Positions 2-24,876 are shown, numbered from the stretch's first letter. The stretch: DNA of 64,000 nucleotides from a virus (IMGVR_UViG_3300009164_000002:2968-66967), one strand, 5' to 3'. The notes: generated by a model from the letters alone, not told the origin. Translations and numbers: made by a program.

Positions 2-2203
2 ATCTTCAAAGGTATTGCTGATGCTATTGAGATTACTCGTGTAATGTCCTTCAAACCAGAATCGGATAAGAGTATTATTTCTGGAATAAATTCAATTGTT
101 CCAATGCTTTACACTCATGCAAACGTTCCGGGCTCTGCGCGTATTGTTCAAGAGAACAACTATAAAGAAGACCCTCTTGAATTGGTTTCCATTACTGAAT
201 CGGCAATGTTTGGAAAGCCGGGCAGATATAATCGTAATGTTACTAAGGCTACATTAAGACCTATTAACATAGATGGCATTACTGGTTTAGATAGCTTGGT
301 AGATGATGCATTATATCGTATGAACGTAGCCCCAAACTACAATGTTCTTCGCAAAGCATTTGGTCGTAGGGTTATTGATCCTGATACTCAAATGGATACC
401 ATTGATGGTTCAACTATTATTGCAGCGAATGACAATGATTATTATAACCGCGCATATAGAGAACAACGTTTAGCCTTGGCTAACGTAGCGGCTGAGTTTG
501 AAAGTGATATTGTAAATGATTCACAAAAAGGAGTCGTCAACACTCTTATGGGTGAACAAGCCAAATGGCTCAGCACTCAATTTATTGGCGGTGCTTTATT
601 CTCGATTCAGCAATTACTTGTCCAAACTGTTCCTGCTGTCGTCTTTACTCCAATTAAAAAACTTGCTGTTGGCGACGTTGATGGAGCAAAACAATTTGTT
701 ACCATATTGGCTAAATATGGAGCATCTATGTTATCAAGAAGAATCAATAAGTTAAGCCGTGGCACATTAAGTCTTCCAGATGTCTTTGCTAATAATCTAG
801 AAAATGCAGTTAATAACCTATCTCCATTGAATATCATTCGTGGTGGCGATGGAATGGAAGAAAACAAGATTGTATCTAGACGCACGAACAGATATGGCTA
901 CGGGATACATAAGCAGATTGCTGGTAGGATATTTAAGGAGATCGAGAATCTTACAGAGATTGGTATGGATCTTACTATTGCTAGTGGTGAGAGATTAGTT
1001 TCTCGTGCTTTGTATATGTCTGAGTTGCTGGGTGAGCTTAATCGGATGAATGCGGCAGACCCTAGTGTTCAAACATACGATAGTGTTGAGGCGTTAATTA
1101 AAGAATCAAACCTTAAAGGCATTAATCCTGAAGCGGCTAACTATGCTCGTATGAAAGTTAATGATATGTTTGGTCAAGCCGACCAAGCTAAGAAGGGATT
1201 CTTGTTCCAAACTCGCACTACACATCCGGGCTGGAATCAAGTATTACGTAGCACAACACGGTTCAGTAACCATACTGCAAGCACGTCAAGTAACCTTACG
1301 GCATTTTGGCCAGCGTTGGGGATTCATGTTTCAAGTCCATTCTTTAAAACGTTAAACAAAGTTACTGGTGAAATTGAATGGCAAACAAACTTCAAGAAGT
1401 TATTTACTATTGAGGATATGTCGGGAGCCAAAAACATGGGTCGTCGCCGCATGAGACAAGAAGCAATAGAAAACTTTGTTGGAACTCTTGGACAAAACAT
1501 TATGTTCCAATTTATCAAGCCAAGGGTATTACTTCCGCTTGTTGGGATGGCTATAGCTAAAGCTAGTGGTGATGATGATGATGAGGCTACTGTAGCTGGT
1601 GCTGAGTTTGCTAATTACATTATGAAATCAGATGATGATACTGGTTTTATTACTAAACAACTTAAAGAGTTTATATTTGGTTCAGGTTCTAATGCTATTA
1701 AAGAGTGGAGAGATCCAGAATCTGCAAGGAAATCAATGTATGCTGACATCACAAGTAAAATTCTACTTGAGCTTTCTCAGGCAGTTCCGGGCGTTGGTTC
1801 AATAGCTGGTTATTCTCCTGCATCTTCTGTTTTAAAACAGTTTATTACAGATGATATGTCTGAGCGTTTACTTGCTACTGGAGACAACATGAAAGTTGCT
1901 AAAACTAATAGCGAGAAGAAGGGTGTTCGCATTTACGATAAATCTAATAATTGGCTTGAGGCTGCATCATTGATGTCAGCACCATCTGCTCAGTTATATA
2001 ATTACAGTGAGAACGCTTATACTACATTAAAAGCTATAGGATTGGATGATATCACTATAGTTGATTACATGAAAGTTATGGCTTCCAATGTAATATCTAC
2101 GCGCGAGTTCAGATCGGCACAAATGGATAAGCTTAACAAAGCTATTCAATTGGAAGAAATGAGAGAAAAGCAAATAGAGCAACGTAGACTTAATGAAAAC
2201 TAG
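2..2203 (+). CDS. C-terminal part of a large virion/ejection protein (5'-truncated; possibly the end of the giant ORF starting at 52452)
   Basis: Frame is open upstream of the ATG at 44 back to the window start (ATC TTC AAA GGT ATT GCT...). Helical protein with hydrophobic segments, as in C-termini of podovirus giant internal proteins. Confidence 0.65.
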   Translation: MFKGIADAIEITRVMSFKPESDKSIISGINSIVPMLYTHANVPGSARIVQENNYKEDPLELVSITESAMFGKPGRYNRNVTKATLRPINIDGITGLDSLVDDALYRMNVAPNYNVLRKAFGRRVIDPDTQMDTIDGSTIIAANDNDYYNRAYREQRLALANVAAEFESDIVNDSQKGVVNTLMGEQAKWLSTQFIGGALFSIQQLLVQTVPAVVFTPIKKLAVGDVDGAKQFVTILAKYGASMLSRRINKLSRGTLSLPDVFANNLENAVNNLSPLNIIRGGDGMEENKIVSRRTNRYGYGIHKQIAGRIFKEIENLTEIGMDLTIASGERLVSRALYMSELLGELNRMNAADPSVQTYDSVEALIKESNLKGINPEAANYARMKVNDMFGQADQAKKGFLFQTRTTHPGWNQVLRSTTRFSNHTASTSSNLTAFWPALGIHVSSPFFKTLNKVTGEIEWQTNFKKLFTIEDMSGAKNMGRRRMRQEAIENFVGTLGQNIMFQFIKPRVLLPLVGMAIAKASGDDDDEATVAGAEFANYIMKSDDDTGFITKQLKEFIFGSGSNAIKEWRDPESARKSMYADITSKILLELSQAVPGVGSIAGYSPASSVLKQFITDDMSERLLATGDNMKVAKTNSEKKGVRIYDKSNNWLEAASLMSAPSAQLYNYSENAYTTLKAIGLDDITIVDYMKVMASNVISTREFRSAQMDKLNKAIQLEEMREKQIEQRRLNEN

Positions 2204-3183: not shown

Positions 3184-3203
3184 ATTGTTTAGGTTGGCTA
3201 AAA

Positions 3204-4441: not shown

Positions 4442-4488
4442 GTTATTTTTTTTCTTTTATTTTAAATTTAATGTGCTTGTTTATTTGT

Positions 4489-4782: not shown

Positions 4783-5040
4783 TTAGCTTATGTGAAGAAC
4801 TTTGTTTCCAATAGTTATTTCTAACGTTGGTTGCATATGATTATCTTCATATGTAAGTAACTCATCAGATCCTTCTACTATTTCAGACACTGGATCAATA
4901 CCAATGCCGTAAGCCCAGTCGTAAATTTCTAGGCTGGTAGCTTCTGGGTTTTCATTCAAGAACTTCATTAGTTCTTCTTCGTTTTCATCTTCTATTGAAA
5001 AACGTTCCCATATAGTAATTTTTTGGTCGATTTGTATCAT
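4783..5040 (-). CDS. acidic hypothetical protein
   Basis: ORF track. Confidence 0.6.
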   Translation of the reverse strand: MIQIDQKITIWERFSIEDENEEELMKFLNENPEATSLEIYDWAYGIGIDPVSEIVEGSDELLTYEDNHMQPTLEITIGNKVLHIS

Positions 5041-5044
5041 AATT

Positions 5045-8996: not shown

Positions 8997-10003
8997 TATG
9001 CTTTTTCAATATCAATGGCTTTTCCTTGGAAATAAGCCTTGTTATTTTTCACATCAATTACTACATCGCCAATTGGAACATCTCCGATAAGACCATTCTT
9101 TTTGGATACTCCTGTAGTTTTAATGATGTAGTATGTTGTTTTTGAATCTTTGTATGCGTCAATTAAGCTCATTGCTTGTTCTTTGCTGCGGATGTTTTTG
9201 ATCGTTTGATCGTCATCCATCTTCTTAACGATAGAGCAAAGACTTCTTACATTTTTAGTGCTAAGTTCGTATGCTTCTGCTTTAGAAAGGATTGTTTTCT
9301 TTGAAGCATCTGGGATTTTTGCGTAGTGAGCTTCTTGATGATGGCTGTAGCTAAGGTCGTATCGCTTATCTTGGAATGCTTTATATACGCCAACTTTTTG
9401 GGCGACTGTATTGTAAGCAGCACTTTCAATAGCACATACTTGAGAGATACTGAAATCTTCACCAAAATATTCCTCCAGCGAAGCTACAATAGACCCAAGC
9501 ATCCATGCACTTTTATCATCAACAGCGGGAGCTAACTCACGAAGTTTCAAAACATTTTCTACTACTTGGTAGGCATGAGTGATTTCAGGTGGTTTTTCTG
9601 GATTAACTACGCAGCAACCATCTTCACTGATAATGAACGAACCATCATTGGTATCTGCCATTGCCCTAATTAGGCTCACAGCGGCGTTTCCTACTACTTC
9701 CTGTAGCTCAGTCTTTTGAGCTGGCTCAGCTTGTTCTAGGGTTGTTTCTGGCTCATCATGAGCATCAATTACTTCTTCTGGTTCTTGTTCTTGCATAATT
9801 TCTTGTGTTGTTGAGATGTGTTTTGCCATTTTACGGATACGTTCACGGGCAACTCCCATGTATTGTGCGTATAGTGGTTCTCCTTTTGAGCGGATTTGAG
9901 AGACAGCTTCAGCTACCATATCGTAGGTAATCTGAAATTCTTCTGAAATCGTGTAATAATCTTCTTCGATGAGGGGAATCCCCTTGAAATATAGTGTAAT
10001 CAT
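8996..10003 (-). CDS. putative DNA-binding protein (LmbU/DUF1016-N-like helical domain)
   Basis: AWMLG...LSYSHHQEA...LSTKNVR pattern. Confidence 0.5.
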   Translation of the reverse strand: MITLYFKGIPLIEEDYYTISEEFQITYDMVAEAVSQIRSKGEPLYAQYMGVARERIRKMAKHISTTQEIMQEQEPEEVIDAHDEPETTLEQAEPAQKTELQEVVGNAAVSLIRAMADTNDGSFIISEDGCCVVNPEKPPEITHAYQVVENVLKLRELAPAVDDKSAWMLGSIVASLEEYFGEDFSISQVCAIESAAYNTVAQKVGVYKAFQDKRYDLSYSHHQEAHYAKIPDASKKTILSKAEAYELSTKNVRSLCSIVKKMDDDQTIKNIRSKEQAMSLIDAYKDSKTTYYIIKTTGVSKKNGLIGDVPIGDVVIDVKNNKAYFQGKAIDIEKA

Positions 10004-10021
10004 ATGATTTGTTTAGGTTGG

Positions 10022-10309
10022 CTAAATAGGTATTGGTTGTCCAGTGGCTTTATTGATTGATTCGTTAATTTTTTCAATAGCATTGTCAATCACTTCATTT
10101 CGATGAGTGTATCCAATCATGCACATTAAAGCTACATTTAGAGCATCGAGCATATCTGGAGCAGCGGCAATGAGGTGAGCGTTGGCATCACGATTCATTA
10201 AATGAACGTTATTTATAATTACTCTTTTCCCGTCTTCTCCAAAAAAATCAAGACTTCCATTATTGTTTTTTTGGAATGACCAAGGTGCGGGTGTATGTGA
10301 AGTGTTCAT
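10022..10309 (-). CDS. conserved phage protein (HTPxPW / NAxLIAAAP family)
   Basis: HTPAPW...ANAHLIAAAPDMLDAL; start placed at MNTSH. Confidence 0.7.
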   Translation of the reverse strand: MNTSHTPAPWSFQKNNNGSLDFFGEDGKRVIINNVHLMNRDANAHLIAAAPDMLDALNVALMCMIGYTHRNEVIDNAIEKINESINKATGQPIPI

Positions 10310-13427: not shown

Positions 13428-13441
13428 ATACTTATTAACTC

Positions 13442-13456
13442 AAGCGCGAAGCGCTT
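13442..13456 (+). promoter_or_regulatory. C-GAA-G DNA mini-hairpin, copy 1 of 5 (candidate hairpin promoter for minus-strand genes)
   Basis: AAGCGC-GAA-GCGCTT, intergenic. Confidence 0.55.
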
Positions 13457-14309
13457 ACATTTCACTTTTATTTGAATTAATTTCAAGTGTTTCTTGCTTG
13501 TATTGATAGCAATGATTCTTAAAGCCGCAGAAATTATCGCAAAATGTTCTCTCACCTTTACGGACTTGAATGATTTGTCCGGGTTTTATTTCTGCATTAG
13601 CTTCTTGTAGAGAGTTGCATACTTTAGATGCTCTTTTGCCATCTGGTTTTATTAGAGCAAAGGTGTCGTCCTTTTGCCATTTTTCGTCTTTAGTGCATAG
13701 CCGAGCGTTACCCTTGAGTGCTTCTAAATGCTCTGGAATTGCTTTGTTAAATGTATCTACTGCCATTTTTTCATCGTATGGATGAACAAATACTTTGAAT
13801 GGGCTTTGAGGATAGCTTGGATTCACAGTTGATTGCATGTAAGACCAATCCATTTGAATATAAACTACTGCTACATTATCTGATTCAATGCCGTTTAGTT
13901 TGGCTAAATAAGCATTCATATTCACTTGCTTGTAGTGATCTGGTTTCATGCATTCTTGAACGCCACGTGTGCTCTTGTAGTCAAACATAGTGCGATTCTC
14001 CCACAAATCCATCTGACCACTCACTTTTGCCCCACAAATCTCTGCAAACACACGCTTCTCTGCAATTTCTCCCGATTCAGCATCTACATTATTCTCTAAG
14101 ATGTGGTGAATAGCTGTCCCAAGAAGGGCAGAGAATGACCCGTAGGCGCTTTCTTCTTTTTCGTGGAGTGTAGCGAGCCAAGTGCGTAATGGCGGCGAAA
14201 GAAGCCCTGTTACGCTGAATTGTGAGTCACCTTTAGAGTAATTATTCCTCATCAATGCACGTTTAAATGGACTTGGGAAACTTACTATTTCTTGTTTTAA
14301 GTTATTCAT
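13455..14309 (-). CDS. PD-(D/E)XK exonuclease (Cas4/RecB-like)
   Basis: GTAIHHILE...E...SGQMD...DYKST...Q.N.NAYL; C-terminal C..FC.F...C. Confidence 0.85.
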   Translation of the reverse strand: MNNLKQEIVSFPSPFKRALMRNNYSKGDSQFSVTGLLSPPLRTWLATLHEKEESAYGSFSALLGTAIHHILENNVDAESGEIAEKRVFAEICGAKVSGQMDLWENRTMFDYKSTRGVQECMKPDHYKQVNMNAYLAKLNGIESDNVAVVYIQMDWSYMQSTVNPSYPQSPFKVFVHPYDEKMAVDTFNKAIPEHLEALKGNARLCTKDEKWQKDDTFALIKPDGKRASKVCNSLQEANAEIKPGQIIQVRKGERTFCDNFCGFKNHCYQYKQETLEINSNKSEM

Positions 14310-14321
14310 TTTATTAAATTA

Positions 14322-14804
14322 TTATTTTGAAGTCTCGCTAAGGTAATTCCTTAAAGCGTAAATGTATTCAGCAGTAGATTTTGTTTCTTTCCAAAGTGGA
14401 GTCTCCCAGCGATTGACTACTGCTTGTGACAACTCTTGTAGTTGATTATTTTGAAATTGTAGATCTGCAAGAGAATTTTCTAGATTTTTATTCTCTTCAA
14501 TCAAATCTTGATATTTTATGAGCAAAGATTTATACATCGTATCTTTATCCAGCAGGATACTGCTTGGTTGAACATATTCTCTATATAGTTTGTATTTTTT
14601 ACAAGGTGGGCAAATAGCAGGTCTGTTGCGTTTTTGTTTGGCATTGCTTCTTCTACCTTTTTTACCGCAAATTTCGCAAGTATATCTTCGTGATGGTGTT
14701 TTATTGTCTTGGTTATCGGTCATAGATAGGTCATTTGGTATAGTTTGTAGGTCGTTATTGCATACGCATCCATCCCAGCCACATTTCTTGCATTGCCCAC
14801 TCAT
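14322..14804 (-). CDS. Zn-ribbon / coiled-coil hypothetical protein
   Basis: CKKC..CVC, CEIC...CPPC. Confidence 0.6.
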   Translation of the reverse strand: MSGQCKKCGWDGCVCNNDLQTIPNDLSMTDNQDNKTPSRRYTCEICGKKGRRSNAKQKRNRPAICPPCKKYKLYREYVQPSSILLDKDTMYKSLLIKYQDLIEENKNLENSLADLQFQNNQLQELSQAVVNRWETPLWKETKSTAEYIYALRNYLSETSK

Positions 14805-15139
14805 AGTTCGTTCGGGGTTAGGGATTGGAGTGCTTTGCGTAATCCCTCATAAGCAAGCATGGTGTTGTGTCTGCCTTTAGCTGCAATTAGTATGGTTGCA
14901 GCATTAACAGCCTCAGCTAACTTGTCGCGCTGTTTGGTAATAGCGATTAATGCTTCATTTAACTCTAATCCTTCTGTTCTAGCTGCATCATGATCATTGA
15001 GCAATGTGTTTTCTAGCAAGGTAATCTTTATTTCGTGTTGTTTTGCTAAAGTCCATCCTTCGAAGCCCCACTCTAGGTCACTCAGTGATTCACACTGTAA
15101 TTGTTTTTCATCAGTTATCGGTGTTTCTGATTGGATCAT
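14801..15139 (-). CDS. hypothetical protein
   Basis: SETPITD N-terminus, ATGA overlap. Confidence 0.6.
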   Translation of the reverse strand: MIQSETPITDEKQLQCESLSDLEWGFEGWTLAKQHEIKITLLENTLLNDHDAARTEGLELNEALIAITKQRDKLAEAVNAATILIAAKGRHNTMLAYEGLRKALQSLTPNEL

Positions 15140-15157
15140 ATTATGAATTGTTTACTT

Positions 15158-15796
15158 TTAAGTCTCTTCAGTTACGTTGTATGCCCACGCGTCGGAGTCT
15201 TCTGTTGCCCATTTGTCGTAAGCTTCGCAATTCCATTCGTCAGTATTGACCTTGTAATCAGGTTTCTCTGGATATGGTTTGGTAACATGAGACGGTTCAA
15301 ACCAACGCAGTCTGTTGTTTGGCTGAAGGGCATATTCTCCGTTATCAAGTTCAATAAAATGTGCACTTTTATGCTCTGCTGGATCGACTGCAAGCGAAAG
15401 GTCAATGCCATGTGTCATGTCTGATCCCCATTGCATTGTCCATAAGTATCTCCCCCTTGCCCATTTGCCAGACTTCAACCTAACTTCAACAATCAAACCA
15501 GAAATGTATTGCAACTCAACCAAGTTGAAATTTGAGCTAAAACAATTCCAAAGTTGAAGATGGTGAAACGGATGTTCGTGTTCATGCTCAACGTGATGTA
15601 AGGCATGAATTGGCAGTTTGTCTCTCAACACTCCGTTCTCAAGCAACACTTGAAATAAAGCTCCATTGCCGGGTATTGACCGAACTGAAATCATAACTCC
15701 GAGTTCGTATTCTCCATGCCCTGCTTTGTGATCAAGCATGAACTCTCTTCGAACTAAAACTTTAATTGGTGGTGTTGATACTTCGTGCAATGCCAT
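15158..15796 (-). CDS. conserved aquatic-phage protein of unknown function
   Basis: HGEY...KLPIHAL...LQLWNCFS...EHKSAH..LDNG.YALQPNNR. Confidence 0.75.
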   Translation of the reverse strand: MALHEVSTPPIKVLVRREFMLDHKAGHGEYELGVMISVRSIPGNGALFQVLLENGVLRDKLPIHALHHVEHEHEHPFHHLQLWNCFSSNFNLVELQYISGLIVEVRLKSGKWARGRYLWTMQWGSDMTHGIDLSLAVDPAEHKSAHFIELDNGEYALQPNNRLRWFEPSHVTKPYPEKPDYKVNTDEWNCEAYDKWATEDSDAWAYNVTEET

Positions 15797-15800
15797 AATA

Positions 15801-16127
15801 TTATTGTTTTTGACGTTCTTCGCTTTTTACAATTATTTTGGCTAGTTGTCTTGATGTGGTAATCTTACTGACTTTGCCGTCATGTCCAGCTTCCATTTTC
15901 TTCGCACCGCAGTCGTTTTCAAATAAATACCAACTGATCCAGTCGTGTCTATCTACCATTTGGAGCATAGATTCAAATGCAGACCAAATGGCGTGGAACA
16001 AAGGTCCTGAACAATTTAACACTCCAGCACTATCAGCTGCGTCGCACCATTTACTTAGGTCTTTATAATTAAAAACAATCTTTTCAATTTTTTTTGTCCA
16101 TTGTTCAATGCGTTCTTCTTTATTCAT
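15801..16127 (-). CDS. hypothetical protein
   Basis: DWISWYLFENDCG motif. Confidence 0.65.
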   Translation of the reverse strand: MNKEERIEQWTKKIEKIVFNYKDLSKWCDAADSAGVLNCSGPLFHAIWSAFESMLQMVDRHDWISWYLFENDCGAKKMEAGHDGKVSKITTSRQLAKIIVKSEERQKQ

Positions 16128-16204
16128 AGTTGTTGTTTTTGCATAAGTTGTAAATAATCAAGGCGATAAAAATTAAAATTATTAAAATTATTTCATATCT
16201 CATA

Positions 16205-16429
16205 TTAATAGTCGTCTTCTATGAATTTAGGCTTATAACCTTTTACTACTTCATATTCTCCAGTTTCCAATATAAGTCCATACTCTCCTCCTACATAGAC
16301 TTGTCCACGCTCTTTCCATTCTGGAAGGTTCTTGGCTACTACAGCAGGGTAAACTTCTTCTGGAACTATTTTGATGGCCGTCCCAAGCATTGTAAATGTC
16401 TTAACTGGTCTTACGTAAATGATCTTCAT
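16205..16429 (-). CDS. hypothetical protein
   Basis: ORF track. Confidence 0.6.
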   Translation of the reverse strand: MKIIYVRPVKTFTMLGTAIKIVPEEVYPAVVAKNLPEWKERGQVYVGGEYGLILETGEYEVVKGYKPKFIEDDY

Positions 16430-16447
16430 GATTAATTGATAATATTC

Positions 16448-16696
16448 TTACTTGTCCCAGTCAATAATTGATCTTCCAGACATAAGACAAATCGTAAGGA
16501 AAGCATTACGAGCATAGCGGTTATCAGCCACAATCATACCTTAGATAAAAGAGCATTCAATAGTTCTTGCTCGTTTAGTTCCAATTTTAACATCATTGCT
16601 TTTGAGGATGTATTTAATCGCGTCGATAATTTCATCGTTTGTTTTAAGCACTTCAGGCGCTTTCAATGATTGTTCTTCTGTAATTAGTTTATTCAT
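16448..16696 (-). pseudogene. 82-codon ORF interrupted by an in-frame TAA at 16541-16543
   Basis: MNKLITEEQ...IECSFI*GMIVADNRYARNAFLTICLMSGRSIIDWDK*; frame continues past the stop. Confidence 0.5.
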
Positions 16697-16720
16697 ATTG
16701 TTTAGTTTGGCTAAAGTTTA

Positions 16721-17075
16721 CGCGTTACACAGTCGCGCCCCTGTTTCAATTGTCTATGCCTAGGCTTAGAGGTTGATCATGTTTCCACAGGGATTCTGTT
16801 TTACAGCCCGGCTCTTGATTTGTTATCCGATCTTTTTGTCTGTTACTGAAAATGGTAGGGAGGGGGTGTAGCTTTCCCGTGATGCGCACTACTGTAGTCA
16901 CCCCGCCTTTGACGGGCTCCCATTACTTGTCTTTCCAAGCAGTCATCTTAAGCACCCTTTTGCGGAAGAACCGCGCATTTACGTTTTCAGGTGATTACGG
17001 ACCATTCTTCTGTCTCGTTGTTGGTCATGCACGACTTACTCACGGCTTTAAGGAACTATGAGCAGGGACAATGCA
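16721..17075 (-). ncRNA. candidate structured RNA cluster
   Basis: About 390-nt gap with many hairpins, a CCA-ended domain (16853-16921) and an H-type pseudoknot (16721-16744). Confidence 0.5.
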
Positions 17076-17093
17076 GAAATCATATATACATCC

Positions 17094-17106
17094 AGCGCGT
17101 AGCGTT
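17094..17106 (+). promoter_or_regulatory. C-GTA-G DNA mini-hairpin, copy 2
   Basis: AGCGC-GTA-GCGTT (G.T wobble only on the + strand). Confidence 0.5.
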
Positions 17107-17558
17107 TATGCTTCAATTGTTTCAACATTACTAAATATTCGCAACGCAAGATCTTCAATTGTCTTTTTGACTTGGTTGTTATTTAGTAATGGATTTTGAG
17201 GTTTTAAAGAATCAATAATTTTCTTTTTAGCTCTATCTTCATAGAAATGTTCGCTTTTGTATTTTGCTATTTTTTTTGTTAATTGCTTACATTCTGTTGA
17301 AGATAAATATAATGTAATACTTGATGATTCTTGATAGGGATTTACACAAAGTTGAAATTCATCTGGATTAGCTTTTTTAAGTTCTCTTAATCCAGCATCA
17401 AGTAATTGTTTTTCGATTCCTTTGCGAAGTTTGTTTTTGTTTTCTTCTTCTTTTTTGTGCAATTCTTTTGCTTTAATAAGCAAGGCTTCAATCAATTGAC
17501 CTTTAGTTGGTTTTGGTATAATCTTATTAATCTTAGGAGATATTATTAGTTCGGACAT
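17106..17558 (-). CDS. hypothetical protein
   Basis: ORF track. Confidence 0.6.
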   Translation of the reverse strand: MSELIISPKINKIIPKPTKGQLIEALLIKAKELHKKEEENKNKLRKGIEKQLLDAGLRELKKANPDEFQLCVNPYQESSSITLYLSSTECKQLTKKIAKYKSEHFYEDRAKKKIIDSLKPQNPLLNNNQVKKTIEDLALRIFSNVETIEA

Positions 17559-17713
17559 TATTTAGGTTTTTTCTTTTGTTTGATCTTTGCTTCTTGTTTT
17601 AGCATTTCTTTGGTTGGCTTTTTACCTGAACCTGCGGCTGCTCTGATATTATCATATAATCCACGTTGTGATGTTGAACCGTCAGCACGTTTAATCATTT
17701 GTTTCTTTCTCAT
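17558..17713 (-). CDS. small basic protein (51 aa, MRKKQMIKRADGSTSQRGLYDNIRAAAGSGKKPT...)
   Basis: Read by hand; TAATG coupled; GLYDNIR motif seen in small basic phage proteins. Confidence 0.7.
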   Translation of the reverse strand: MRKKQMIKRADGSTSQRGLYDNIRAAAGSGKKPTKEMLKQEAKIKQKKKPK

Positions 17714-17725
17714 ATGTTTATTTAA

Positions 17726-17977
17726 TTAAAATGTTTTAACTCCTCTTTTATGCAGTTCTCTTTTAAGGTCGCGATAACGGTGAAATTCATAGCTATCTTT
17801 CACTTTCGTTACAGGAAGACTTCTTAAATCAGATACAATTGCCATAATTGTTTCTGTTTTCATAGTATGATTATATTGGCTATAGATACCATTTAGTGTT
17901 TCATAAGGTTTCAATTGTTTTTTTTTGATGGTAGTATAGCGATGCTCTCCTGTTTTTCTTTTTGTTTGAGCAATCAT
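17726..17977 (-). CDS. hypothetical protein
   Basis: ORF track. Confidence 0.5.
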   Translation of the reverse strand: MIAQTKRKTGEHRYTTIKKKQLKPYETLNGIYSQYNHTMKTETIMAIVSDLRSLPVTKVKDSYEFHRYRDLKRELHKRGVKTF

Positions 17978-17980
17978 GAT

Positions 17981-18391
17981 TTATCTATTGGCATGTTGAT
18001 TTGCGATTATCATTTGCGTTGGAGCCCATACTTCTAGTATATGCAACCTTAAGCGTTCTCCATTATAATGTTCACAAGTGCTGCCTTTTTCGTATTCAAT
18101 TGTCACTTCAAATTCTGTGCAATCGTCAGAAATGCTGTCTATACGGCACGGAGCCATGTAATGGTATCTTTGTTCATTATGAGTTATTGAATGGACTATA
18201 GGACTATGCACGGAGCAGTAACCGCCTATTGTAGTTGAATCTACTTTAGGACCATCCCATTCCTTCCAAACCATTCTTAGAAACTTGTGATGATTTTCTA
18301 TTTCTTTTTTTAAGTCTTCTTTTTCTTTAGTCGCGGCTAAAGTTTTTTCTTCTTGATCAAAGAAATCAAATATTGGTGTTGTTAATGTCAT
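17981..18391 (-). CDS. hypothetical protein
   Basis: ORF track. Confidence 0.6.
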   Translation of the reverse strand: MTLTTPIFDFFDQEEKTLAATKEKEDLKKEIENHHKFLRMVWKEWDGPKVDSTTIGGYCSVHSPIVHSITHNEQRYHYMAPCRIDSISDDCTEFEVTIEYEKGSTCEHYNGERLRLHILEVWAPTQMIIANQHANR

Positions 18392-18779
18392 TTATTGTAA
18401 AGGATATTAGTGCGTTAGCGTGAGCAATTGCCGCCTCTTTACTTAAGTGGATTAATCCCTTAGACTTAAAGGTTTTATCGCTGGAAGCATCATCCCAAGT
18501 GTATATATCATATCCAGTTTGCCCCCACAAGATGGGCGTGTAATAATATACACCCAACGACATCTCACCACGATACGGCTCAGGAACTTCGTGTCCGTTG
18601 ATGTTAATAGTCTTCGGCTTGCGGCGGTATTGGGTATTCGTAAACCAGATAGGATAAACTTGTCTCAGTGGTCTCCAAACTTGATTATCGAAATACTCCC
18701 ATCTTTCCCAAGGCGTTTCTGTTTCCATTGCGTCCTTGGCGTATTCCATCATCAACTCAGCATGTTTGTGTGGTTTCAT
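18366..18779 (-). CDS. conserved phage hypothetical protein
   Basis: PHKHAELM..YAKDA..PWERWE...YRRKP...GLIHL.KEAA. Confidence 0.7.
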   Translation of the reverse strand: MKPHKHAELMMEYAKDAMETETPWERWEYFDNQVWRPLRQVYPIWFTNTQYRRKPKTININGHEVPEPYRGEMSLGVYYYTPILWGQTGYDIYTWDDASSDKTFKSKGLIHLSKEAAIAHANALISFTINDINNTNI

Positions 18780-19170
18780 TTTTTTCTTTAATATAGTTTT
18801 CTAATACATCTGCAATTTCATCGAAAGTATATCCTCCGAAATCATTTAATTCTGGTAGAGTCATTTTTTCTTTCTCCCCATTTTTAGTTATATAATCAAA
18901 TTGTTGGTATAAATTTATACCGTAATAATCTTTGAACCAATAATGATCTGGCAAGCCACTTGCAAAGTATCCTAATGAATCAATAATTCCTTTAATATTT
19001 CTTGATAATGGATATGGAACTAAAATACCTTGCATTTCACAAGCTACTCCTAAGCAACAATAACCATCTTCAGTGCAAAGCTTATTAGTGATCTGTTTCC
19101 AATTGCCTGAACGTAATTCCTTGATCCATTCTTTTACGTTTTGTATTTGAGTTGTATTCATTGTATCCAT
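18757..19170 (-). CDS. conserved phage hypothetical protein
   Basis: WIKELRSG.WKQ...YCCLGV.C...LND..YTFDEIAD. Confidence 0.7.
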   Translation of the reverse strand: MDTMNTTQIQNVKEWIKELRSGNWKQITNKLCTEDGYCCLGVACEMQGILVPYPLSRNIKGIIDSLGYFASGLPDHYWFKDYYGINLYQQFDYITKNGEKEKMTLPELNDFGGYTFDEIADVLENYIKEKNETTQTC

Positions 19171-19487
19171 TTATCAATTGTTTTAAGAAAAGCTTCTGCG
19201 CGTTGGGCTGCGGTGGCATGAACAATGTCAAATGTATCGTCTAAACCAGAAGTGTAATAGCCTCCATTTAATTGATAGGCGTATTCTCTTTTGTCTTTTT
19301 GGCTTAATGTTTTCTCCGCCTCGTGCATCGCGTTGAGGTCGTTGAGGTAGTCGGGAATTCCGATACTGCCCCAGTATTTACCCTCCGCATTCATTCCTAT
19401 GGAGGCAATACAAGATTCACCCCACATTCTGACATTGATAAACTCACAAGTCTCTGCGATGGCGATTCTTTGTTGTTCTTCAGTCAT
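19158..19487 (-). CDS. phage ABA-sandwich-like protein
   Basis: PDYLNDLNAMHEAE...ATAAQRAEAFL. Confidence 0.6.
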   Translation of the reverse strand: MTEEQQRIAIAETCEFINVRMWGESCIASIGMNAEGKYWGSIGIPDYLNDLNAMHEAEKTLSQKDKREYAYQLNGGYYTSGLDDTFDIVHATAAQRAEAFLKTIDKWIQ

Positions 19488-19560
19488 ATTTGTAATAGAG
19501 TATTACCATAACAACTGTTATGACTGCGGCGATTATGATTTCAATTGTATCTTCAGACAT
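19480..19560 (-). CDS. 26-aa membrane peptide (MSEDTIEIIIAAVITVVMVILYYKYD)
   Basis: Read by hand; single TM segment; fills the gap. Confidence 0.45.
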   Translation of the reverse strand: MSEDTIEIIIAAVITVVMVILYYKYD

Positions 19561-19581
19561 AAATAAATAAATTTAGTTGAA

Positions 19582-20757
19582 TTAAAGTGTTTCTTTGAGC
19601 TTACCTTTGGCTTGTTTGATTATTTCTTTAATAAGATATGTTTGGAAGTTTCTATCCATGTCAAAATATCCAGCTACATGAGCGTTTTCTTCGAAAAGAG
19701 TTACTACAAGAAAGAACAAGCCCTCACTAAACGCTTTTTTAGTGAGATAGATGCTACCTTTGTATTCGTAAGCATAAGTGTTACCATCTTCTGAATGAAC
19801 CATCTTGATTGGTGCAGTGATTGGATAACCTGCTTTAGTTAAGAATTCTTTGCCGCGCTCAATCATCAATGCTTCTTCTTCATCTGGTTCTATTAAAGTA
19901 AAAGCAGCTCCTTTCATTTTCTTGGAAATTAGCTTTTGAATACGGCTATTAAGTTTTGCTGGGCTGTTCGTCCAAAGATTAGTGACAATGTTTTTAAAGT
20001 CGTCTTTCCAATCCCAGTCAAAGTCCAAACGTTCTACTTCCCAACACATCTGGTTAGTGATGATGTTTGTAATAATTTCTTTGTCTTTAATATATCTTAC
20101 GATTGCTTGTCCTACTTTTTGTGTGACTTGATGATCATACTTGTATGTCCTGTCTTCAGTTAGTTCTAAGTAATCTTTGATGTGATAAGAATAGAGAGCT
20201 CCATCAACTGATCCTACTTTAACTCCTCTGTGGTAAATTGTTCCGTTGCCAGCATAAATATCTACACTGTCACTTGTTGCTAATGGCTCACGATCACCTA
20301 TGAAGTAGTCGTTATGTTTCTTCATGCATTCAGCAAATTCTTTGCCTTCTACGATGATTGACGTGCCTTCTTCCATAGGCTCACCCATGAAGTGAATGCC
20401 TCCTTCGTCCATTGTATTGCTGACAAGCTCTCTGTAAGCTCCCCATACGTCCCATGTATGCCCGTAGTGGGTGGTGAAAGATAATGGCTTACCATTGCAG
20501 GTGATACGTTTGAACTCTTTACCACGGAAATTAAGGTCGATTAGCCCAAATTCATAAATGTTAGTGCCGGACTTGATCGTAATCTTATGTTCAGTTCGAA
20601 GTAGAACTGCAATAGCATAGCAAAGACCTGTGCCAAATTTACCAATAGCTTCATCTTGGTCAATTTTTGCACTAACTCCTTGCATTTCCCATGCTTCTGG
20701 TTGGATTTCTTCATTATTGTGGAAGATTATTTTATTACTTAGTAATGTATTAGTCAT
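19582..20757 (-). CDS. GHKL-type ATPase-like protein with reordered motifs and a C-terminal zincin-like segment
   Basis: IGKFGTGL precedes AYRELVSNTMD; GT box EEGTSIIV; C-terminal LFEENAH. Confidence 0.7.
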   Translation of the reverse strand: MTNTLLSNKIIFHNNEEIQPEAWEMQGVSAKIDQDEAIGKFGTGLCYAIAVLLRTEHKITIKSGTNIYEFGLIDLNFRGKEFKRITCNGKPLSFTTHYGHTWDVWGAYRELVSNTMDEGGIHFMGEPMEEGTSIIVEGKEFAECMKKHNDYFIGDREPLATSDSVDIYAGNGTIYHRGVKVGSVDGALYSYHIKDYLELTEDRTYKYDHQVTQKVGQAIVRYIKDKEIITNIITNQMCWEVERLDFDWDWKDDFKNIVTNLWTNSPAKLNSRIQKLISKKMKGAAFTLIEPDEEEALMIERGKEFLTKAGYPITAPIKMVHSEDGNTYAYEYKGSIYLTKKAFSEGLFFLVVTLFEENAHVAGYFDMDRNFQTYLIKEIIKQAKGKLKETL

Positions 20758-20804
20758 TTTTGTGTGTTTTCTTTTATTGATATTTAGAATCTATAAACTT
20801 ATCT

Positions 20805-20817
20805 AGCGCGAAGCGCT
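20805..20817 (+). promoter_or_regulatory. C-GAA-G DNA mini-hairpin, copy 3
   Basis: AGCGC-GAA-GCGCT, intergenic. Confidence 0.55.
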
Positions 20818-20818
20818 T

Positions 20819-21049
20819 TTAGTCAGCGTCGATTTGTTCTTCACATTCGTAGTTTGAGTCAGTAAATATCTCTTTTCTATATTTGCTCATAACTGTCTTC
20901 TCACAGCTATTACATACGCTTTGGCAGTATATGCCCCGCGCGTCATAAAGAGGGAACCATGGCAGTTCTGAGCCGCAACTACAGGCATTGTAGGGAACTC
21001 TATCGTTGCTTAGTGTTATTGTATTTTCTTGAGTGTTAATGCTATACAT
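20819..21049 (-). CDS. small Zn-binding hypothetical protein
   Basis: CSCGS...YDARGIYC..VC.SC. Confidence 0.65.
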   Translation of the reverse strand: MYSINTQENTITLSNDRVPYNACSCGSELPWFPLYDARGIYCQSVCNSCEKTVMSKYRKEIFTDSNYECEEQIDAD

Positions 21050-21068
21050 TGTTTTAGTCAGGCTAAAG

Positions 21069-21260
21069 TTATTTCCATGCCTTTTTTTTTGCTATCTCAT
21101 AAGTCTTATAAGTATCAATTAATTTATCATCATGATATAGATCAAAGACGTTGTTTTCACATACATGAGTTTCACCCATAGCGAATATAACGCCATCAGG
21201 CTTGCGACTTTGTTTGATTGTAAAGCCTTCCTTGAATTTATATTCTTTATAGTTTTCCAT
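21069..21260 (-). CDS. hypothetical protein
   Basis: ORF track. Confidence 0.55.
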   Translation of the reverse strand: MENYKEYKFKEGFTIKQSRKPDGVIFAMGETHVCENNVFDLYHDDKLIDTYKTYEIAKKKAWK

Positions 21261-21262
21261 GT

Positions 21263-21520
21263 TTATTTACGTATTACGTGATACAATGGTGCTGATTTAA
21301 CCCAAATGGTTCGGCTGAGCTCATTTAATACAATGGGCTTTGTCTTTTGATACACTCCACCCTCTTTGCATATAGGGTCTAGTTGTGCTTTAATCTTAGA
21401 TATTTCATTTAATGTCGCATTTAATGTTATTTGCATAGCTAGGAACGTAAGCCCAATTATTACAGTTAGTGTCGTTATCATCTCGCTAATGTTACTGATT
21501 CTGGGAGATAATCCCCCCAA
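21263..21520 (-). CDS. membrane-anchored hypothetical protein (start probably at 21481)
   Basis: TM segment ITTLTVIIGLTFLAM. Confidence 0.5.
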   Translation of the reverse strand: MGGLSPRISNISEMITTLTVIIGLTFLAMQITLNATLNEISKIKAQLDPICKEGGVYQKTKPIVLNELSRTIWVKSAPLYHVIRK

Positions 21521-21903
21521 CTTGCTGTGTTGTATTTTTCTTTGGAAATGCTTTTGAATTTTACATAGACATCTATGCCTTCAATTAACTCAAATGTCCT
21601 TTTTAACGTGGCGAATATAAATATTGGTTCGCATCTTACTTTCCCGTTAATTACTTCATACGCACTATTGGTTATCGTTTCTTCGAATAGTATCTTTCTG
21701 AATTGGAAAGCATTTTTTGACAGCTTATTGCTGACTTCGAATACAATATAGTCGGATTTAACATCTGTTTTAGCTTTGATCCATGCTTCGCAAATGAACA
21801 ATCTACCCCACTCGTAGCCTTTCTCTCTTCTTTCAGCTGTATCAAGACGATAGTCATTGCCTTGTTTGATTAGCATTAGTTCTATGTGATCGTATTTTTG
21901 CAT
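21478..21903 (-). CDS. hypothetical protein
   Basis: ORF track. Confidence 0.6.
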   Translation of the reverse strand: MQKYDHIELMLIKQGNDYRLDTAERREKGYEWGRLFICEAWIKAKTDVKSDYIVFEVSNKLSKNAFQFRKILFEETITNSAYEVINGKVRCEPIFIFATLKRTFELIEGIDVYVKFKSISKEKYNTASWGDYLPESVTLAR

Positions 21904-21930
21904 ATAGTAAAATTGATTATTGTAAAAAAA

Positions 21931-22010
21931 GGTGCGTGATCTAGGAGGGACTTTCGATGTTTCACCGCCTTCAATGTCACAGACGTATATGTTGCACCGC
22001 TAGACCACGC
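21931..22010 (-). ncRNA. 80-nt small RNA candidate just downstream of tmRNA
   Basis: 11-bp closing stem GCGTGGTCTAG/CTAGATCACGC followed by ACC-TTTTTTT. Confidence 0.55.
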
Positions 22011-22024
22011 ATTATTTAGGAAAA

Positions 22025-22433
22025 TGGTGGAGGTGTCGGGAGTTGAACCCGAGTCCTTAACGCTTTTCACAATCTTTTCGAACACGTTTATATTAGCTCG
22101 TCAAAGTGAGCCAGTCTTAGGGACATTCCAGTTATGGAACATCCTCCACCATCCTGTCTTTACGCCACAGACTTGCGTTGTTTTCCCGTTTTGTATCTTA
22201 TCATAGAGCGGGAGTATTGATAAGCGTGTTTGACCTGCGTCGATTAAGCAGCAGCAAGCTCGCGCTCCACGAAACCGTGGAATTCAAGGATGTTGTTTGC
22301 TTCCTCAACGGAAGGTGCGAATTCGTTAGAATCTGCATTTATTTGTTTTTAATCGGCTTTTAACGCAGCCAACCGATTAACTGCGACGTGCTTAGATTGA
22401 GTAGAGCATTAAGTCGAAACCATTTGCACCCCC
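22025..22433 (-). ncRNA. ssrA: tmRNA (transfer-messenger RNA)
   Basis: 5' GGGGGTGCAAATGGTTTCGAC; 3' GACTCGGGTTCAACTCCCGACACCTCCACCA; G3.U70 Ala acceptor; PK1-like pseudoknot; tag ADSNEFAPSVEEANNILEFHGFVERELAAA* at 22336-22244. Confidence 0.95.
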
Positions 22434-22475
22434 GTAAAAATTGATTGTAATGCACTTATTAAGATTGACTAGTGC

Positions 22476-22515
22476 AAAAAAAGAAAGCCCCCACCCCGAT
22501 TAAGGAGTGAGGGCT
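22476..22515 (-). terminator. Rho-independent terminator
   Basis: Minus strand AGCCCTCACTCC-TTAATC-GGGGTGGGGGCT-TTCTTTTTTT. Confidence 0.8.
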
Positions 22516-22532
22516 GAATACACACGATGAGA

Positions 22533-22961
22533 TTAGAACGCTGGCTCGTCTGCTTCTGAGCCGAGTCCGAAAGCTGCGAGGAAGTCTTTGTTTTCTTTGA
22601 GACGACCAAGTGCTTCTGAGTCTTTGACGTTGCTTAGGAAGCAATGAACTGTTCCGTTCTTGACTTTGGATTTGTTCTTGAGTGCCCACAAGTTGATATA
22701 CTGGAGGTCACCGATTGCGTCTGCATTGTCCATGTATACGCCAGTGGAGTAGATGGCATCTCCATTGCGACTTGCTGCACGAACGGCTGCATCTGCTTCT
22801 GGATTAGCCGTTGTGGTCATGCGAACGACACCGTTAGCGTCTGCAATTTCTTCGTTCTTGACGCGATACACAACTTTGGTTGTTTCTGGTTTGAACGCGA
22901 GATATTTACGCACTTCTAGTTCTTCTGCTTGGTCACGGACATGTAGTAATACTGTTTTCAT
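22533..22961 (-). CDS. hypothetical protein with an SSB-like acidic C-terminal tip (EADEPAF)
   Basis: Apparently monocistronic: mini-hairpin and 5' stem-loop upstream, terminator downstream. Confidence 0.7.
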   Translation of the reverse strand: MKTVLLHVRDQAEELEVRKYLAFKPETTKVVYRVKNEEIADANGVVRMTTTANPEADAAVRAASRNGDAIYSTGVYMDNADAIGDLQYINLWALKNKSKVKNGTVHCFLSNVKDSEALGRLKENKDFLAAFGLGSEADEPAF

Positions 22962-23046
22962 TTCTATTTGTTTCTTTCTGTTTGTTTGTTATTGGTGTGT
23001 CTCCCTCAACTCCGTATTGAAGCTGAGAGAGACTAATTTACTCACT

Positions 23047-23059
23047 AGCACGAAGTGCT
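23047..23059 (+). promoter_or_regulatory. C-GAA-G DNA mini-hairpin, copy 4
   Basis: AGCAC-GAA-GTGCT (compensatory A-T pair). Confidence 0.55.
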
Positions 23060-24744
23060 TAAGCAAGAGCTATATCAAGTGTTCTATGAAACTCACGCTG
23101 TGCACGTTTTTCTGACGAGTATTCGAACTTGTCATAGATCATGTTCGCAAGGACACGTTTGAGCGTAGGTGACGCATTACGTGCTGTTGTTGGTCTTTCT
23201 GGCAGTTTTGGTATTGCTTTGGTGACGATTTTCCTACCTTCTACCATAATACCTGTTGTTCCGCGTTTGAGGCGACGCACTGAGCCATGACGACCTTCTG
23301 GTTTATTATCACTTGTTAGTGTCACTCTGCTTTCGATGTGATTGTCTGGCAGTATGTGTGCGTTTTCTATCACACGCACTTTAGTTTGGCTAAATGCGTT
23401 TTCTGTGAACACATAACGCGGGACGACCTGCACGGCTTCTTGCGTATGATTCTCTAGTATCATTTCTAGAGTGTTAATCATGCGAGTGAATAACTTGATA
23501 CGCATTAGGGCTGAGTTGTAGGCTTCGAAAGCCCACGCTTCGCCTGTCCCGTTAAGTATGCTAAGGAACTTTGCTGTGTCTTGCGTTGCACCCTTAAGCC
23601 CGTGATACCATTGCATCTCGCCTTTGTCGTTGATTGCTTGCTCACCATAGAGAAGCTCTGTCACTTGTGGACGTGTTAAATCCTCTTTGGTGATGGATGT
23701 CTCATTAAGGTCTAGTTTACTTTGCAAGAACATGACAAGCTCAAGCTCTGCATCATCTTCTGCAAACTTAGACGTGTCTATTGCATAACCTTCTTTGTCA
23801 CGCTCTACGCCTAAGTTGTATGAAGCCTCCGCAGGATCTTCGTAATCTACGATGATTTCTTCTTCATCGTGAATCTCTAGGTCACTGCAATCTTTTAGGA
23901 TGTAGTAGTCTAGCTCTGATACGCTGAGCGGAGGTTCTTCTGCGACTTGCTTCATGGTCAAAGCTCCGTTCTCGTCTAACCAGTAACGGCTTGGAGTGAG
24001 TTTAGGATCTTTTTGCCATGATACGATGACTAACCAACAGTCTTGAAACCAAATTGTTGTGTAAGCAGGGATGATGTCTGTCAAACCCGTGAGCTCTTGT
24101 AGGATGCTGTGAGCACCGCCACGTATATCTTTACCAAGACGCTTTGCAATACTTTGCATTGCTGCATCTGGTGCTGATCTAAGCACTGGTGACCATGCAC
24201 CATCATGTTTTCCTAGATCGCAATACGTGCCGTCTGGAAGGCGGATTGCATAGCGAGCAGGTTCGTGTTGCATACCATTACCCTCTGATTTGATGAGAGG
24301 TGGAAGCTCGTAAACTTCTGCTGAGTGCCATTTACCGCCATTCTTGCGTGTGTTTGTCTTAGCACCATGACGCTGAGCACGACGGATAACGCCCTGCTCT
24401 ACTTTCCATTGTTCTAGACCACGTAGGCGTTCTGAAGCCCACATGAGAGAAGCAATCTTATCTTCTACGGTTTTGAGCCCGTCAAACGCTTCCTTCATTA
24501 CTTTGTCTGCACCTTTTGGCAGCCATTTACCGAAGTTACGCTGCATTATGATTTTAGCAGCACGATCTAATAGAGCGGCTTGCATAGACTTGTCTAGCTT
24601 GAAACGTTCTGGTTTCTCTGACTTAGATGCGGAGACTTCTTCTAGCATCATTAGTATCTGATCTGGAAGAGCGAATCCTCCGTCAGTGATCTCAGTGTTA
24701 AGTCCTGAGTATGTTTTTAGCGTCTTGAACGCGGTATTTTTCAT
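23059..24744 (-). CDS. large hypothetical early protein (561 aa)
   Basis: Long ORF with no motif I recognise. Confidence 0.8.
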   Translation of the reverse strand: MKNTAFKTLKTYSGLNTEITDGGFALPDQILMMLEEVSASKSEKPERFKLDKSMQAALLDRAAKIIMQRNFGKWLPKGADKVMKEAFDGLKTVEDKIASLMWASERLRGLEQWKVEQGVIRRAQRHGAKTNTRKNGGKWHSAEVYELPPLIKSEGNGMQHEPARYAIRLPDGTYCDLGKHDGAWSPVLRSAPDAAMQSIAKRLGKDIRGGAHSILQELTGLTDIIPAYTTIWFQDCWLVIVSWQKDPKLTPSRYWLDENGALTMKQVAEEPPLSVSELDYYILKDCSDLEIHDEEEIIVDYEDPAEASYNLGVERDKEGYAIDTSKFAEDDAELELVMFLQSKLDLNETSITKEDLTRPQVTELLYGEQAINDKGEMQWYHGLKGATQDTAKFLSILNGTGEAWAFEAYNSALMRIKLFTRMINTLEMILENHTQEAVQVVPRYVFTENAFSQTKVRVIENAHILPDNHIESRVTLTSDNKPEGRHGSVRRLKRGTTGIMVEGRKIVTKAIPKLPERPTTARNASPTLKRVLANMIYDKFEYSSEKRAQREFHRTLDIALA

Positions 24745-24801
24745 ATAGTGTGTATCTTTCTTGAACTTACTAATGAGTAGTAAGCTGTTATTTTAGCATC
24801 C

Positions 24802-24814
24802 AGCACGAAGTGCT
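24802..24814 (+). promoter_or_regulatory. C-GAA-G DNA mini-hairpin, copy 5
   Basis: AGCAC-GAA-GTGCT in the divergent intergenic region. Confidence 0.55.
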
Positions 24815-24876
24815 TTGTTTAGTCTGCCTAAAGCACGGGCAGTTTCGTGTTTGACCAAGTGCGGTCTAAAGTGTAA

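Follow-up and report, generated by a model that had tools for sequence, protein, structure and literature searches.

The DNA analysed here is a 64,000-base stretch (the window) covering bases 2968-66967 of a 66,967-bp viral record, IMGVR_UViG_3300009164_000002, whose ends repeat 123 bp in a circular assembly. The genome is laid out in two divergent arms. The leftward arm, from 24744 down to about 2190, holds many small genes together with a Cas4-like exonuclease and a primase-helicase; the rightward arm starts at 24877 and contains a weak terminase match, large open reading frames (ORFs) that are conserved in relatives and have no family matches, and, as its last gene, a giant ORF. Within and at the head of the leftward arm are five mini-hairpins with the consensus AGCRC-GNA-GYGYT, which the original prediction, made from the sequence of the window alone, had read as promoters for a phage-encoded RNA polymerase or factor, comparable to the hairpin promoters of coliphage N4. 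They are given here with distances in nucleotides (nt) and protein lengths in amino acids (aa):

13443..13455, + (template) strand: mini-hairpin AGCGC-GAA-GCGCT, with the 5-nt flank ACTCA at 13438-13442
17094..17106, + strand: mini-hairpin variant AGCGC-GTA-GCGTT, abutting the stop of a 150-aa minus-strand ORF (17106-17558)
20805..20817, + strand: mini-hairpin AGCGC-GAA-GCGCT, 47 nt before a 391-aa minus-strand ORF (19582-20757, phrog_8203)
23047..23059, + strand: mini-hairpin AGCAC-GAA-GTGCT, the A-T compensatory variant, abutting the stop of a 561-aa ORF
24802..24814, + strand: a second AGCAC-GAA-GTGCT mini-hairpin, between the two divergent arms and 57 nt ahead of the 561-aa ORF

These five are the only matches to the pattern AGCRCGNAGYGYT in the window and all lie on the + strand (13443, 17094, 20805, 23047 and 24802), against a chance expectation of 0.02 and a largest count of 1 in 100 dinucleotide-preserving shuffles. 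Extending the scan to the entire 66,967-bp record returned the same five forward matches and no reverse ones, and the reversed pattern of AGCRCGNAGYGYT, used as a control, had no match across that record. The sites read AGCGCGAAGCGCT at 13443 and 20805, AGCGCGTAGCGTT at 17094 and AGCACGAAGTGCT at 23047 and 24802, and they are confirmed as first described in sequence, strand and intergenic position.

All five hairpins are intergenic. Four sit between minus-strand ORFs, and the one at 24802 is in the 132 bp that separate the divergent starts of the 561-aa minus-strand ORF (24744) and the first plus-strand ORF (24877), with no minus-strand gene upstream of it. At three of the five sites the last base of the upstream TAA stop codon is the first A of the hairpin in the mRNA sense, and at one further site the stop is 1 nt from the hairpin. 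The gap from hairpin to next start codon is 10 to 192 nt in this genome and larger in some relatives. No T-run follows the hairpin on the minus (mRNA) strand at any of the five sites, as the original prediction had also said of the U-tract. The leftward-arm genes to which we refer repeatedly are:

23059..24744, minus strand: 561-aa ORF, the first gene of the leftward arm, between two hairpins
13455-14309, minus strand: Cas4-like exonuclease ORF
6816-8654, leftward arm: primase-helicase

The 13443 hairpin abuts the stop of the Cas4-like exonuclease ORF, and a 79-aa minus-strand ORF begins 15 nt on; relatives are also occupied at the equivalent position. The 23047 hairpin stands 85 nt before a 142-aa minus-strand ORF, after which come a terminator and then a transfer-messenger RNA (tmRNA) gene.

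Relatives were gathered through the primase-helicase, which gave 21 viral-contig loci at 65-80% identity, and through a profile of the C-terminus of the giant protein, which gave two more complete genomes; a search for relatives in viral contigs through the 561-aa ORF confirmed none. Nine genomes were compared, from the window genome (G000) to G008, spanning 39-57% GC, and only G003 and G005 are close to each other. They belong to an uncultured freshwater phage family in which the primase-helicase is highly conserved (68-71% identical in the seven of eight relatives that have it). The hairpin element occurs in all eight relatives, in one to six copies each and on one strand, which is always the template strand of the leftward early/replication arm, and its positions are syntenic. 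The exact window pattern had almost no matches in the relatives' loci until stem position 4 and its partner, position 10, were freed; the relaxed pattern AGCNCGNAGNGCT then matched 22 times in five relatives, each record having all its matches on the same strand, and its reversed control gave none in the same five. Our core catalogue holds 38 sites, defined by at most one mismatch to the consensus and no unpaired stem position. It leaves out two opposite-strand matches of the AGCTTG type, two + strand matches within structural-arm ORFs and one G008 site without the flank described below. Generic 5-bp C-GNA-G hairpins in the nine genomes number 63 on the motif strand vs 18 on the other; some of these have other stems (AGGCC, AGACC, GCCCC) and are of uncertain status.

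Each element is a 5-bp stem closed by a C-G pair around a triloop (3-nt loop at 38 of 38 core sites). The freed pair, N4/N10, is Watson-Crick in all 22 AGCNCGNAGNGCT matches, 11 as G-C and 11 as C-G. In further records, where the loop was freed as well, the GNA-loop matches comprise nine Watson-Crick pairs and one G.T, so that the unselected total at pair 4/10 is 31 Watson-Crick and one G.T of 32. Over the 38 core sites this pair is G-C at 22, C-G at 14 and A-T at 2 (GC 21, CG 13 and AU 2 over the 36 distinct aligned rows); the 100% pairing in the site alignment is partly due to selection, and the counts free of it are those from the 22 and the 10 matches. The covariation score is 0.228 vs 0.057 for shuffled alignments, none of 500 shuffles reaches it, and every slid register collapses. 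Stem variants also coexist in single genomes (G-C and A-T in G000, G-C and C-G in G003), and because they do, one reader appears to accept any paired base at position 4; this tolerance therefore argues against a half-site position of double-stranded DNA that is either contacted or free to vary. The compensatory pairing, strand specificity and template-strand C-GNA-G first noticed at five sites are thus backed by 38 sites in nine genomes, and the scan of the full genome and its relatives that the original prediction had proposed as a check bears them out.

On the template strand the loops of the 38 sites are GAA (27), GGA (6), GTA (2), GCA (1) and AAA (2), that is, GNA at 36 of 38, and the C-G pair closing the loop is invariant in the site alignment. 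Beyond the stem, in the mRNA sense, come D, an invariant G (38/38), D, K (G at 30 sites, T at 7) and R (A at 21, G at 14, hence a purine at 35 of 38). The loop and this 5-nt flank on the transcribed side are conserved asymmetrically, and the element is read asymmetrically. The flank resembles GGAG but is not a ribosome site, because a Shine-Dalgarno (SD)-like sequence is found upstream of just 4 of the 53 ORFs of at least 100 aa in the whole window, where leaders are A/C-rich.

Placement is equally one-sided. All 38 core sites belong to the leftward arm, and at each of them the minus-strand genes alongside have the GNA strand as their template; no core site was found in the distal ~11 kb of that arm, at the arm end or in the rightward structural arm. 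The first gene, of 561-587 aa, is bracketed by two hairpins in five genomes (G000, G003, G004, G005 and G007), and in G001 the upstream copy at this gene is an imperfect CGCCC variant. A hairpin precedes the 388-391-aa ORF (phrog_8203, homologous by sequence) in the window genome, G003, G005, G006 and G007, and one lies between the Cas4-like exonuclease and a 72-84-aa ORF in different genomes. By a tally of the listed gaps, about 16 of the 38 sites begin at most 5 nt from the upstream stop codon. About a dozen sites have the start codon 10-16 nt past the stem, and the N-termini of the small ORF at these sites look alike by eye. The five window sites, with 5-bp stems and no T-run, do not have the form of intrinsic terminators. 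A canonical one, with a T-run and a 12-bp stem that contains 8 G-C pairs, separates the 142-aa ORF from the tmRNA gene at 22515-22486 (minus strand), showing that the genome marks termination in the ordinary way and therefore that the mini-hairpins are not terminators.

At the level of sequence, the element is a real hairpin, and its copies, which are conserved, kept paired and confined to one strand, form a regulon in this family of uncultured phages. The placement and flank conservation of the element fit promoters better than terminators. Our tentative preference, held with a little less than even confidence, is that the elements are promoter-like DNA hairpins on the template strand, of the N4 type. 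The + strand hairpins, on the template of the leftward genes, would then mark the starts of early transcription units. By analogy with N4, whose hairpin promoters depend on negative supercoiling and SSB, the hairpin would be extruded from supercoiled DNA and read on the template strand by a family-conserved protein that most plausibly enters with the DNA and would be either a polymerase or an initiation factor, and transcription would begin about five nt beyond the stem. If these are promoters, such a stem-proximal start is needed because about a dozen of the start codons follow the stem by 10-16 nt. The original proposal of promoters for a phage polymerase thus stands in part: placement and flank speak for promoters over terminators, no polymerase was found in the searches described below, and the promoter function is one that we infer.

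To our knowledge, N4-like phages are the only ones known to use template-strand DNA hairpins as promoters, and the polymerase that reads them there is a virion enzyme of the T7 family. The N4 early promoters, taken from the N4 genome and written in the mRNA sense, are GTTGC-TTC-GCAAC, AAGAAGC-TCC-GCTTCTT and AAGCTGC-TCC-GCAGCTT, the last of them 40 nt before the N4 RNAP1 gene. These promoters (P1-P3, Schitoviridae) likewise consist of a template-strand hairpin with a short GC-rich stem of 5-7 bp and a 3-nt G...A loop closed by C-G, and they too occur in few copies per genome before early genes. The GC-TTC-GC core of GTTGC-TTC-GCAAC is identical to that of the AGCGC variant here. Passages of PMC4496689 place the N4 start 8 nt from position -8, i.e. 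at the fifth nt beyond a 5-bp stem, and a purine stands at this distance in 35 of our 38 sites. In contrast to N4, however, where the specificity loop of the polymerase contacts the conserved stem base -8G, the position of this contact covaries freely here, and the elements are not strict members of the N4 promoter family because that contact is not conserved. The flank is NGDKR here but T-rich in N4, the sites, four to six of them, are spread over 11-17 kb and include some before replication genes, and the layout is divergent rather than N4-like. Finally, no N4-type polymerase of ~3,500 aa with a T7-like domain, heterodimeric RNAPII, N4-like structural gene or other hallmark of the N4 family (Schitoviridae) was detected by PHROGs and Pfam on the giant and 30 further ORFs, so the original view that this phage is otherwise not N4-like holds for its recognisable genes.

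The giant protein, encoded at the end of the structural arm by 5,531 codons across the assembly junction, seems to be the only plausible candidate for a virion-delivered factor, although nothing in it is recognisably a polymerase. Its ORF lies in two parts:

52452..64000, + strand: giant ORF, first 3,849 of 5,531 codons, leaving the window and continuing through the circular junction
2..2203, + strand: giant ORF, last 733 codons (C-terminal conserved block)

Full-length giants in seven other genomes have 5,085-5,977 aa, and representatives in the library reach 6,443 aa. Three blocks of the giant are conserved (1-1060, 1525-2130 and 4320-5517), and its centre (2380-4330) has no conserved block among relatives. 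Five giants were counted for cysteines, with 0, 0, 0, 1 and 0, the window giant having none. The N4 virion RNA polymerase (vRNAP) similarly has 0 Cys in 3,500 aa, and both are late proteins; part of PMC3715699 reports that N4-like vRNAPs lack cysteine and connects this with their transit through the tail. By its sequence the giant looks like a large polyvalent injected protein, a group in which passages of Iyer et al. 2017 (PMC5512222) count the N4 vRNAP. Like those proteins it is multidomain, sits in a late operon and carries variable cargo (an HExxH motif in G000, at residue 1265, and in G005; a PD-(D/E)xK nuclease insert in G001, by Pfam and PHROGs), and it would likewise be packaged and injected. 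It differs from them in that its conserved N-terminal, middle and C-terminal blocks match no Pfam family and in that the giants here are at the upper size extreme, at 5,000-6,400 aa.

A word-index homologue search with the giant gave three matches only, and a profile search of the full library gave 100 representative proteins with the C-terminal block, which lies at or near the C-terminus in long giants; the shorter entries are mostly fragments of the block. A tblastn search with the giant C-terminus as query found nothing in 50,697 GenBank phage records, and by this measure the phage family is without a close GenBank relative. The ESM Atlas, queried with a fragment homologue, returned viral clusters without names, and the nearest named ones carry LPD38/LPD39, which we take as a lead only.

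Several findings weigh against an N4-type promoter role. The position of the N4 -8G contact is precisely the variable one here (pair 4/10: G at 22 sites, C at 14, A at 2), and five of the 38 loops lack a central purine or are AAA. A TG about 12-13 nt past the stem, found at 28 of the 38 sites, could belong to a host-type promoter box. Generic folding energies are modest and about the same for DNA and RNA, which makes an RNA-level role compatible with the sequence. To these is added the lack of a recognisable polymerase: Pfam and PHROGs gave none on the window giant or on four relatives' giants, nor any RNA polymerase on 30 other ORFs; profiles of the three conserved blocks had no match in a PDB sequence search; hhalign was null against the polymerase domain, the C-terminal domain and the whole of N4 vRNAP; and a Foldseek search of a model of the C-terminal block against the PDB found nothing at E <= 0.001. 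The giant's centre, moreover, is unconserved whereas the DNA motif is almost invariant, and a cargo polymerase in the centre is unlikely for that reason.

Further comparisons gave a similar result. Regular expressions for T7/N4 motif B and for DxDGD/DxDxD found no conserved match on six giants, a PDB sequence search with the giant in two pieces gave chance-level rows only, and phmmer of N4 vRNAP against the giants gave nothing significant. The AlphaFold (AF2) model of the C-terminal block, built from 34 sequences, is almost entirely helical (pLDDT 79, pTM 0.80); an earlier model from 5 sequences (pLDDT 43.5) was not used. The best Foldseek row for this model is a PhiM1 ejectosome chain (E 0.026, TM 0.07), with N4 2po4 at E 0.24, and the best VIA-align score over 48,161 chains was Z 6.1, to short helical bundles. 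These fold results speak for the C-terminal block alone, with the remaining ~4,300 residues outside the model. The giant ORF had been named as the obvious polymerase candidate; motif, Pfam, PHROG, PDB-sequence and hhalign searches lend this no support, and the structure prediction and Foldseek search suggested at the time yielded, for the C-terminal block, an all-helical fold with no polymerase-like match. The 561-aa ORF fared no better as a polymerase. It has 29 homologues, but searches of Pfam, PHROGs and the PDB, including its family profile against the PDB, returned no match and nothing polymerase-like, and because it is an early gene behind a hairpin its product could not read the first hairpin unless packaged.

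Sections of bioRxiv 10.1101/2020.03.07.982082 describe gp66 of phi14:2, a crAss-like Bacteroidota phage, as a large virion-packaged RNA polymerase for early genes that prefers single-stranded DNA. As given there, gp66 has a DFDxD two-barrel site, whereas the giants here have no conserved DxDxD, and in the same sections phi14:2 early transcripts are reported to be without a common upstream motif, the very feature that is striking here.

Among the alternatives, the one that survives best, while still quite unlikely, is that the sites are promoters for the host polymerase with an AT-rich ...TTG box downstream, and that the hairpin, centred ~15 nt upstream of this box, is the site of a conserved phage or host regulator that turns the early units on or off. 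An AT-rich stretch with TG at +12/+13 follows the stem at the 28 sites mentioned above, and the TG recalls the end of the Bacteroidota -7 box, which is TTTG. The canonical intrinsic terminator in the same arm suggests that a multisubunit polymerase transcribes there, and no phage polymerase was found. Genes without SD sequences are also what Bacteroidota hosts have, and their prevalence in the window suggests a host with SD-independent initiation, such as Bacteroidota. However, a start 6-8 nt past the TG box would fall inside an ORF at about a dozen sites, and because of this we rank the host-promoter explanation below hairpin promoters of the N4 type. The TG box is present at only one of the five window sites, and the invariant G and the purines after the stem would sit in the spacer. 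A scan for sigma-70 promoters (32 found vs 35.1 expected) was uninformative.

The second alternative, which we judge improbable, is that the element works as RNA in the minus-strand transcript, where it would read AGCNC-UNC-GN'GCU followed by NGRGR, as a signal at mRNA boundaries that might direct processing, stabilise a 5' or 3' end or be bound by an RNA-binding regulator. An RNA hairpin accounts for the compensatory pairing and the single orientation as well as a DNA hairpin does, the roughly 16 of 38 sites within 5 nt of an upstream stop would be well placed, and the predicted RNA folds at -5 to -8 kcal/mol at four of the five window sites. However, we know of no stable RNA loop of the U-N-C kind, whereas the complement, C-GNA-G, is the signature of DNA mini-hairpins. 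The d(GCGAAGC)-type DNA mini-hairpins with GNA triloops are a physico-chemical class rather than a biological system, and d(C-GNA-G) triloops have special stability in DNA. The C-GNA-G core of this class is shared here with all four central bases, and the AGCGC variant contains GCGAAGC exactly; the extra stability of the class is not captured by the generic nearest-neighbour energies that we computed. For the N4 promoter hairpin itself, part of PMC4496689 ascribes an unusual stability to the sheared G:A pair that -10G forms with -12A across a purine at -11.

The wobble pair at 17094 points in the same direction. Pair 2/12 of this variant is, as first reported, a wobble (G.T) on the + strand only; the minus strand has A.C at this pair, so that the RNA would be mismatched there, and its predicted fold keeps only 3 bp (z +0.95). 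It is the only non-Watson-Crick pair among the 38 core sites; a second G.T case, the G008 site without the conserved flank, is doubtful, so that the asymmetry rests on one or two sites. No G.U-type variant in the RNA was seen among the 38 paired-only sites or, in the minus arm, by a looser five-genome scan, and the same scan, which allowed one unpaired position, showed no template-strand A.C at a single stem pair in that arm. A boundary signal in RNA also fits poorly with the lack of a T-run and a true terminator elsewhere, with the absence of elements from the distal arm, the arm end and the whole structural arm, with the 24802 site, which has no upstream gene, and with a start-codon distance that varies from 10 to 192 nt. 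A hairpin formed at the DNA level rather than in RNA is favoured but not proven, because the generic energies are similar for the two and the wobble evidence is sparse.

Third in rank, and distinctly improbable, is a DNA signal outside transcription, such as a replication priming site or origin, a strand-specific nicking site or a packaging recognition site. Hairpins in single-stranded DNA direct primases at G4-type origins, T5 and phiKMV-like phages have strand-specific nick consensus sites in few copies per genome, and the genome encodes the highly conserved primase-helicase. The cumulative GC skew has its minimum near 22-24 kb, which suggests a replication origin near the divergent region; the + strand would then be the leading-strand template in the leftward arm, the wrong one for lagging-strand priming, and such priming is disfavoured because of where the minimum puts the origin. 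The sites, moreover, go with gene starts and recur at the same ORFs from genome to genome, the conserved flank is on the transcribed side, and a nick consensus needs no compensatory pairing. Very improbable, lastly, is an ordinary double-stranded palindromic operator for a dimeric protein, with no hairpin: the 13-nt element is a perfect palindrome apart from its loop, but position 4 and its partner change together even within one genome (in the 32 unselected matches above), when an ignored position would vary independently in the two half-sites and a read one would stay constant, the central 3 nt and the one-sided flank keep a strictly fixed orientation to the genes, and 5-bp half-sites with a 3-bp spacer would be very short.

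Other features of the genome deserve mention. A second motif, TTAGNNNNNCTAAA, typically TTAGCC..ACTAAA in the gene sense, has 35 strand-matches vs 1.25 expected and occurs at about 19 window sites (e.g. 3188-3202, 10012-10026, 21053-21067, 24818-24832, 34579-34593, 43508-43522 and 49394-49408). It stands 2-25 nt before start codons in both arms, with several copies inside the giant ORF, and was present in all five genomes scanned (G000, G001, G003, G004 and G005), including the one with 57% GC. The copy at 24818-24832 abuts the 24802 hairpin at a distance of 3 nt, and another overlaps a G001 hairpin. This motif may mark promoters of a second class or act in translation. Beside it in the divergent region, three genomes share a conserved stretch that may be the start region of the rightward arm:

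24833-24860, + strand, in the window; ~9218-9245 in G003; ~65230-65257 in G005 (oriented coordinates): GCACG-N6-7-TTCGTGTTTGAC stretch

The tmRNA gene (22025-22433, minus strand) matches Rfam RF00023 with 121 bits, and ARAGORN gives a 30-residue tag peptide ending in ELAAA. A tmRNA is also found in G005 (L065 734-1128) and G003 (L057 4837-5196) but the parts of G001, G004 and G007 that were scanned showed none; G000, G003 and G005 have in common the order first gene, hairpin, ~145-aa ORF, tmRNA. The 391-aa ORF (19582-20757, minus strand) belongs to phrog_8203, with relatives in Pseudomonas, Bordetella and Synechococcus phages, some of them annotated as HATPase or ATP-binding, and it contains a DFDWD string. 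In the rightward arm, the most conserved proteins of the family are encoded at 29122-30915, 34596-36929 and 38680-40170 (+ strand), with 56-80% identity among relatives and no Pfam or PHROG match. The 597-aa one of these three has only weak similarity to the nuclease domains of terminase large subunits, and a 713-aa protein (31246-33387, + strand) has BspA-type leucine-rich repeats (PF13306, 4.9e-41). Judged by these comparisons, the structural module is very remote from described phages.

The hairpins of this family show the same DNA logic as those of N4, nearly invariant, in divergent uncultured phages without a recognisable polymerase. A broader claim would be that hairpin-promoter transcription is not a peculiarity of N4 and is used by unrelated, widespread uncultured phages, probably infecting Bacteroidota, whose cysteine-free giants of 5,000-6,400 aa would hide, in their conserved N-terminal, middle or C-terminal blocks, a new hairpin-dependent polymerase or initiation factor that neither sequence nor the fold searched would reveal; we regard this as unlikely. 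Should the elements prove to be promoters, the giant injected proteins would contain a new polymerase or initiation factor, or else host polymerases would be directed to extruded hairpins, and either outcome would add to the modes of transcription initiation now known. Being short and defined, the motif can be tested directly in vitro, and it may serve as a marker for the early regulon in metagenomic phage genomes.

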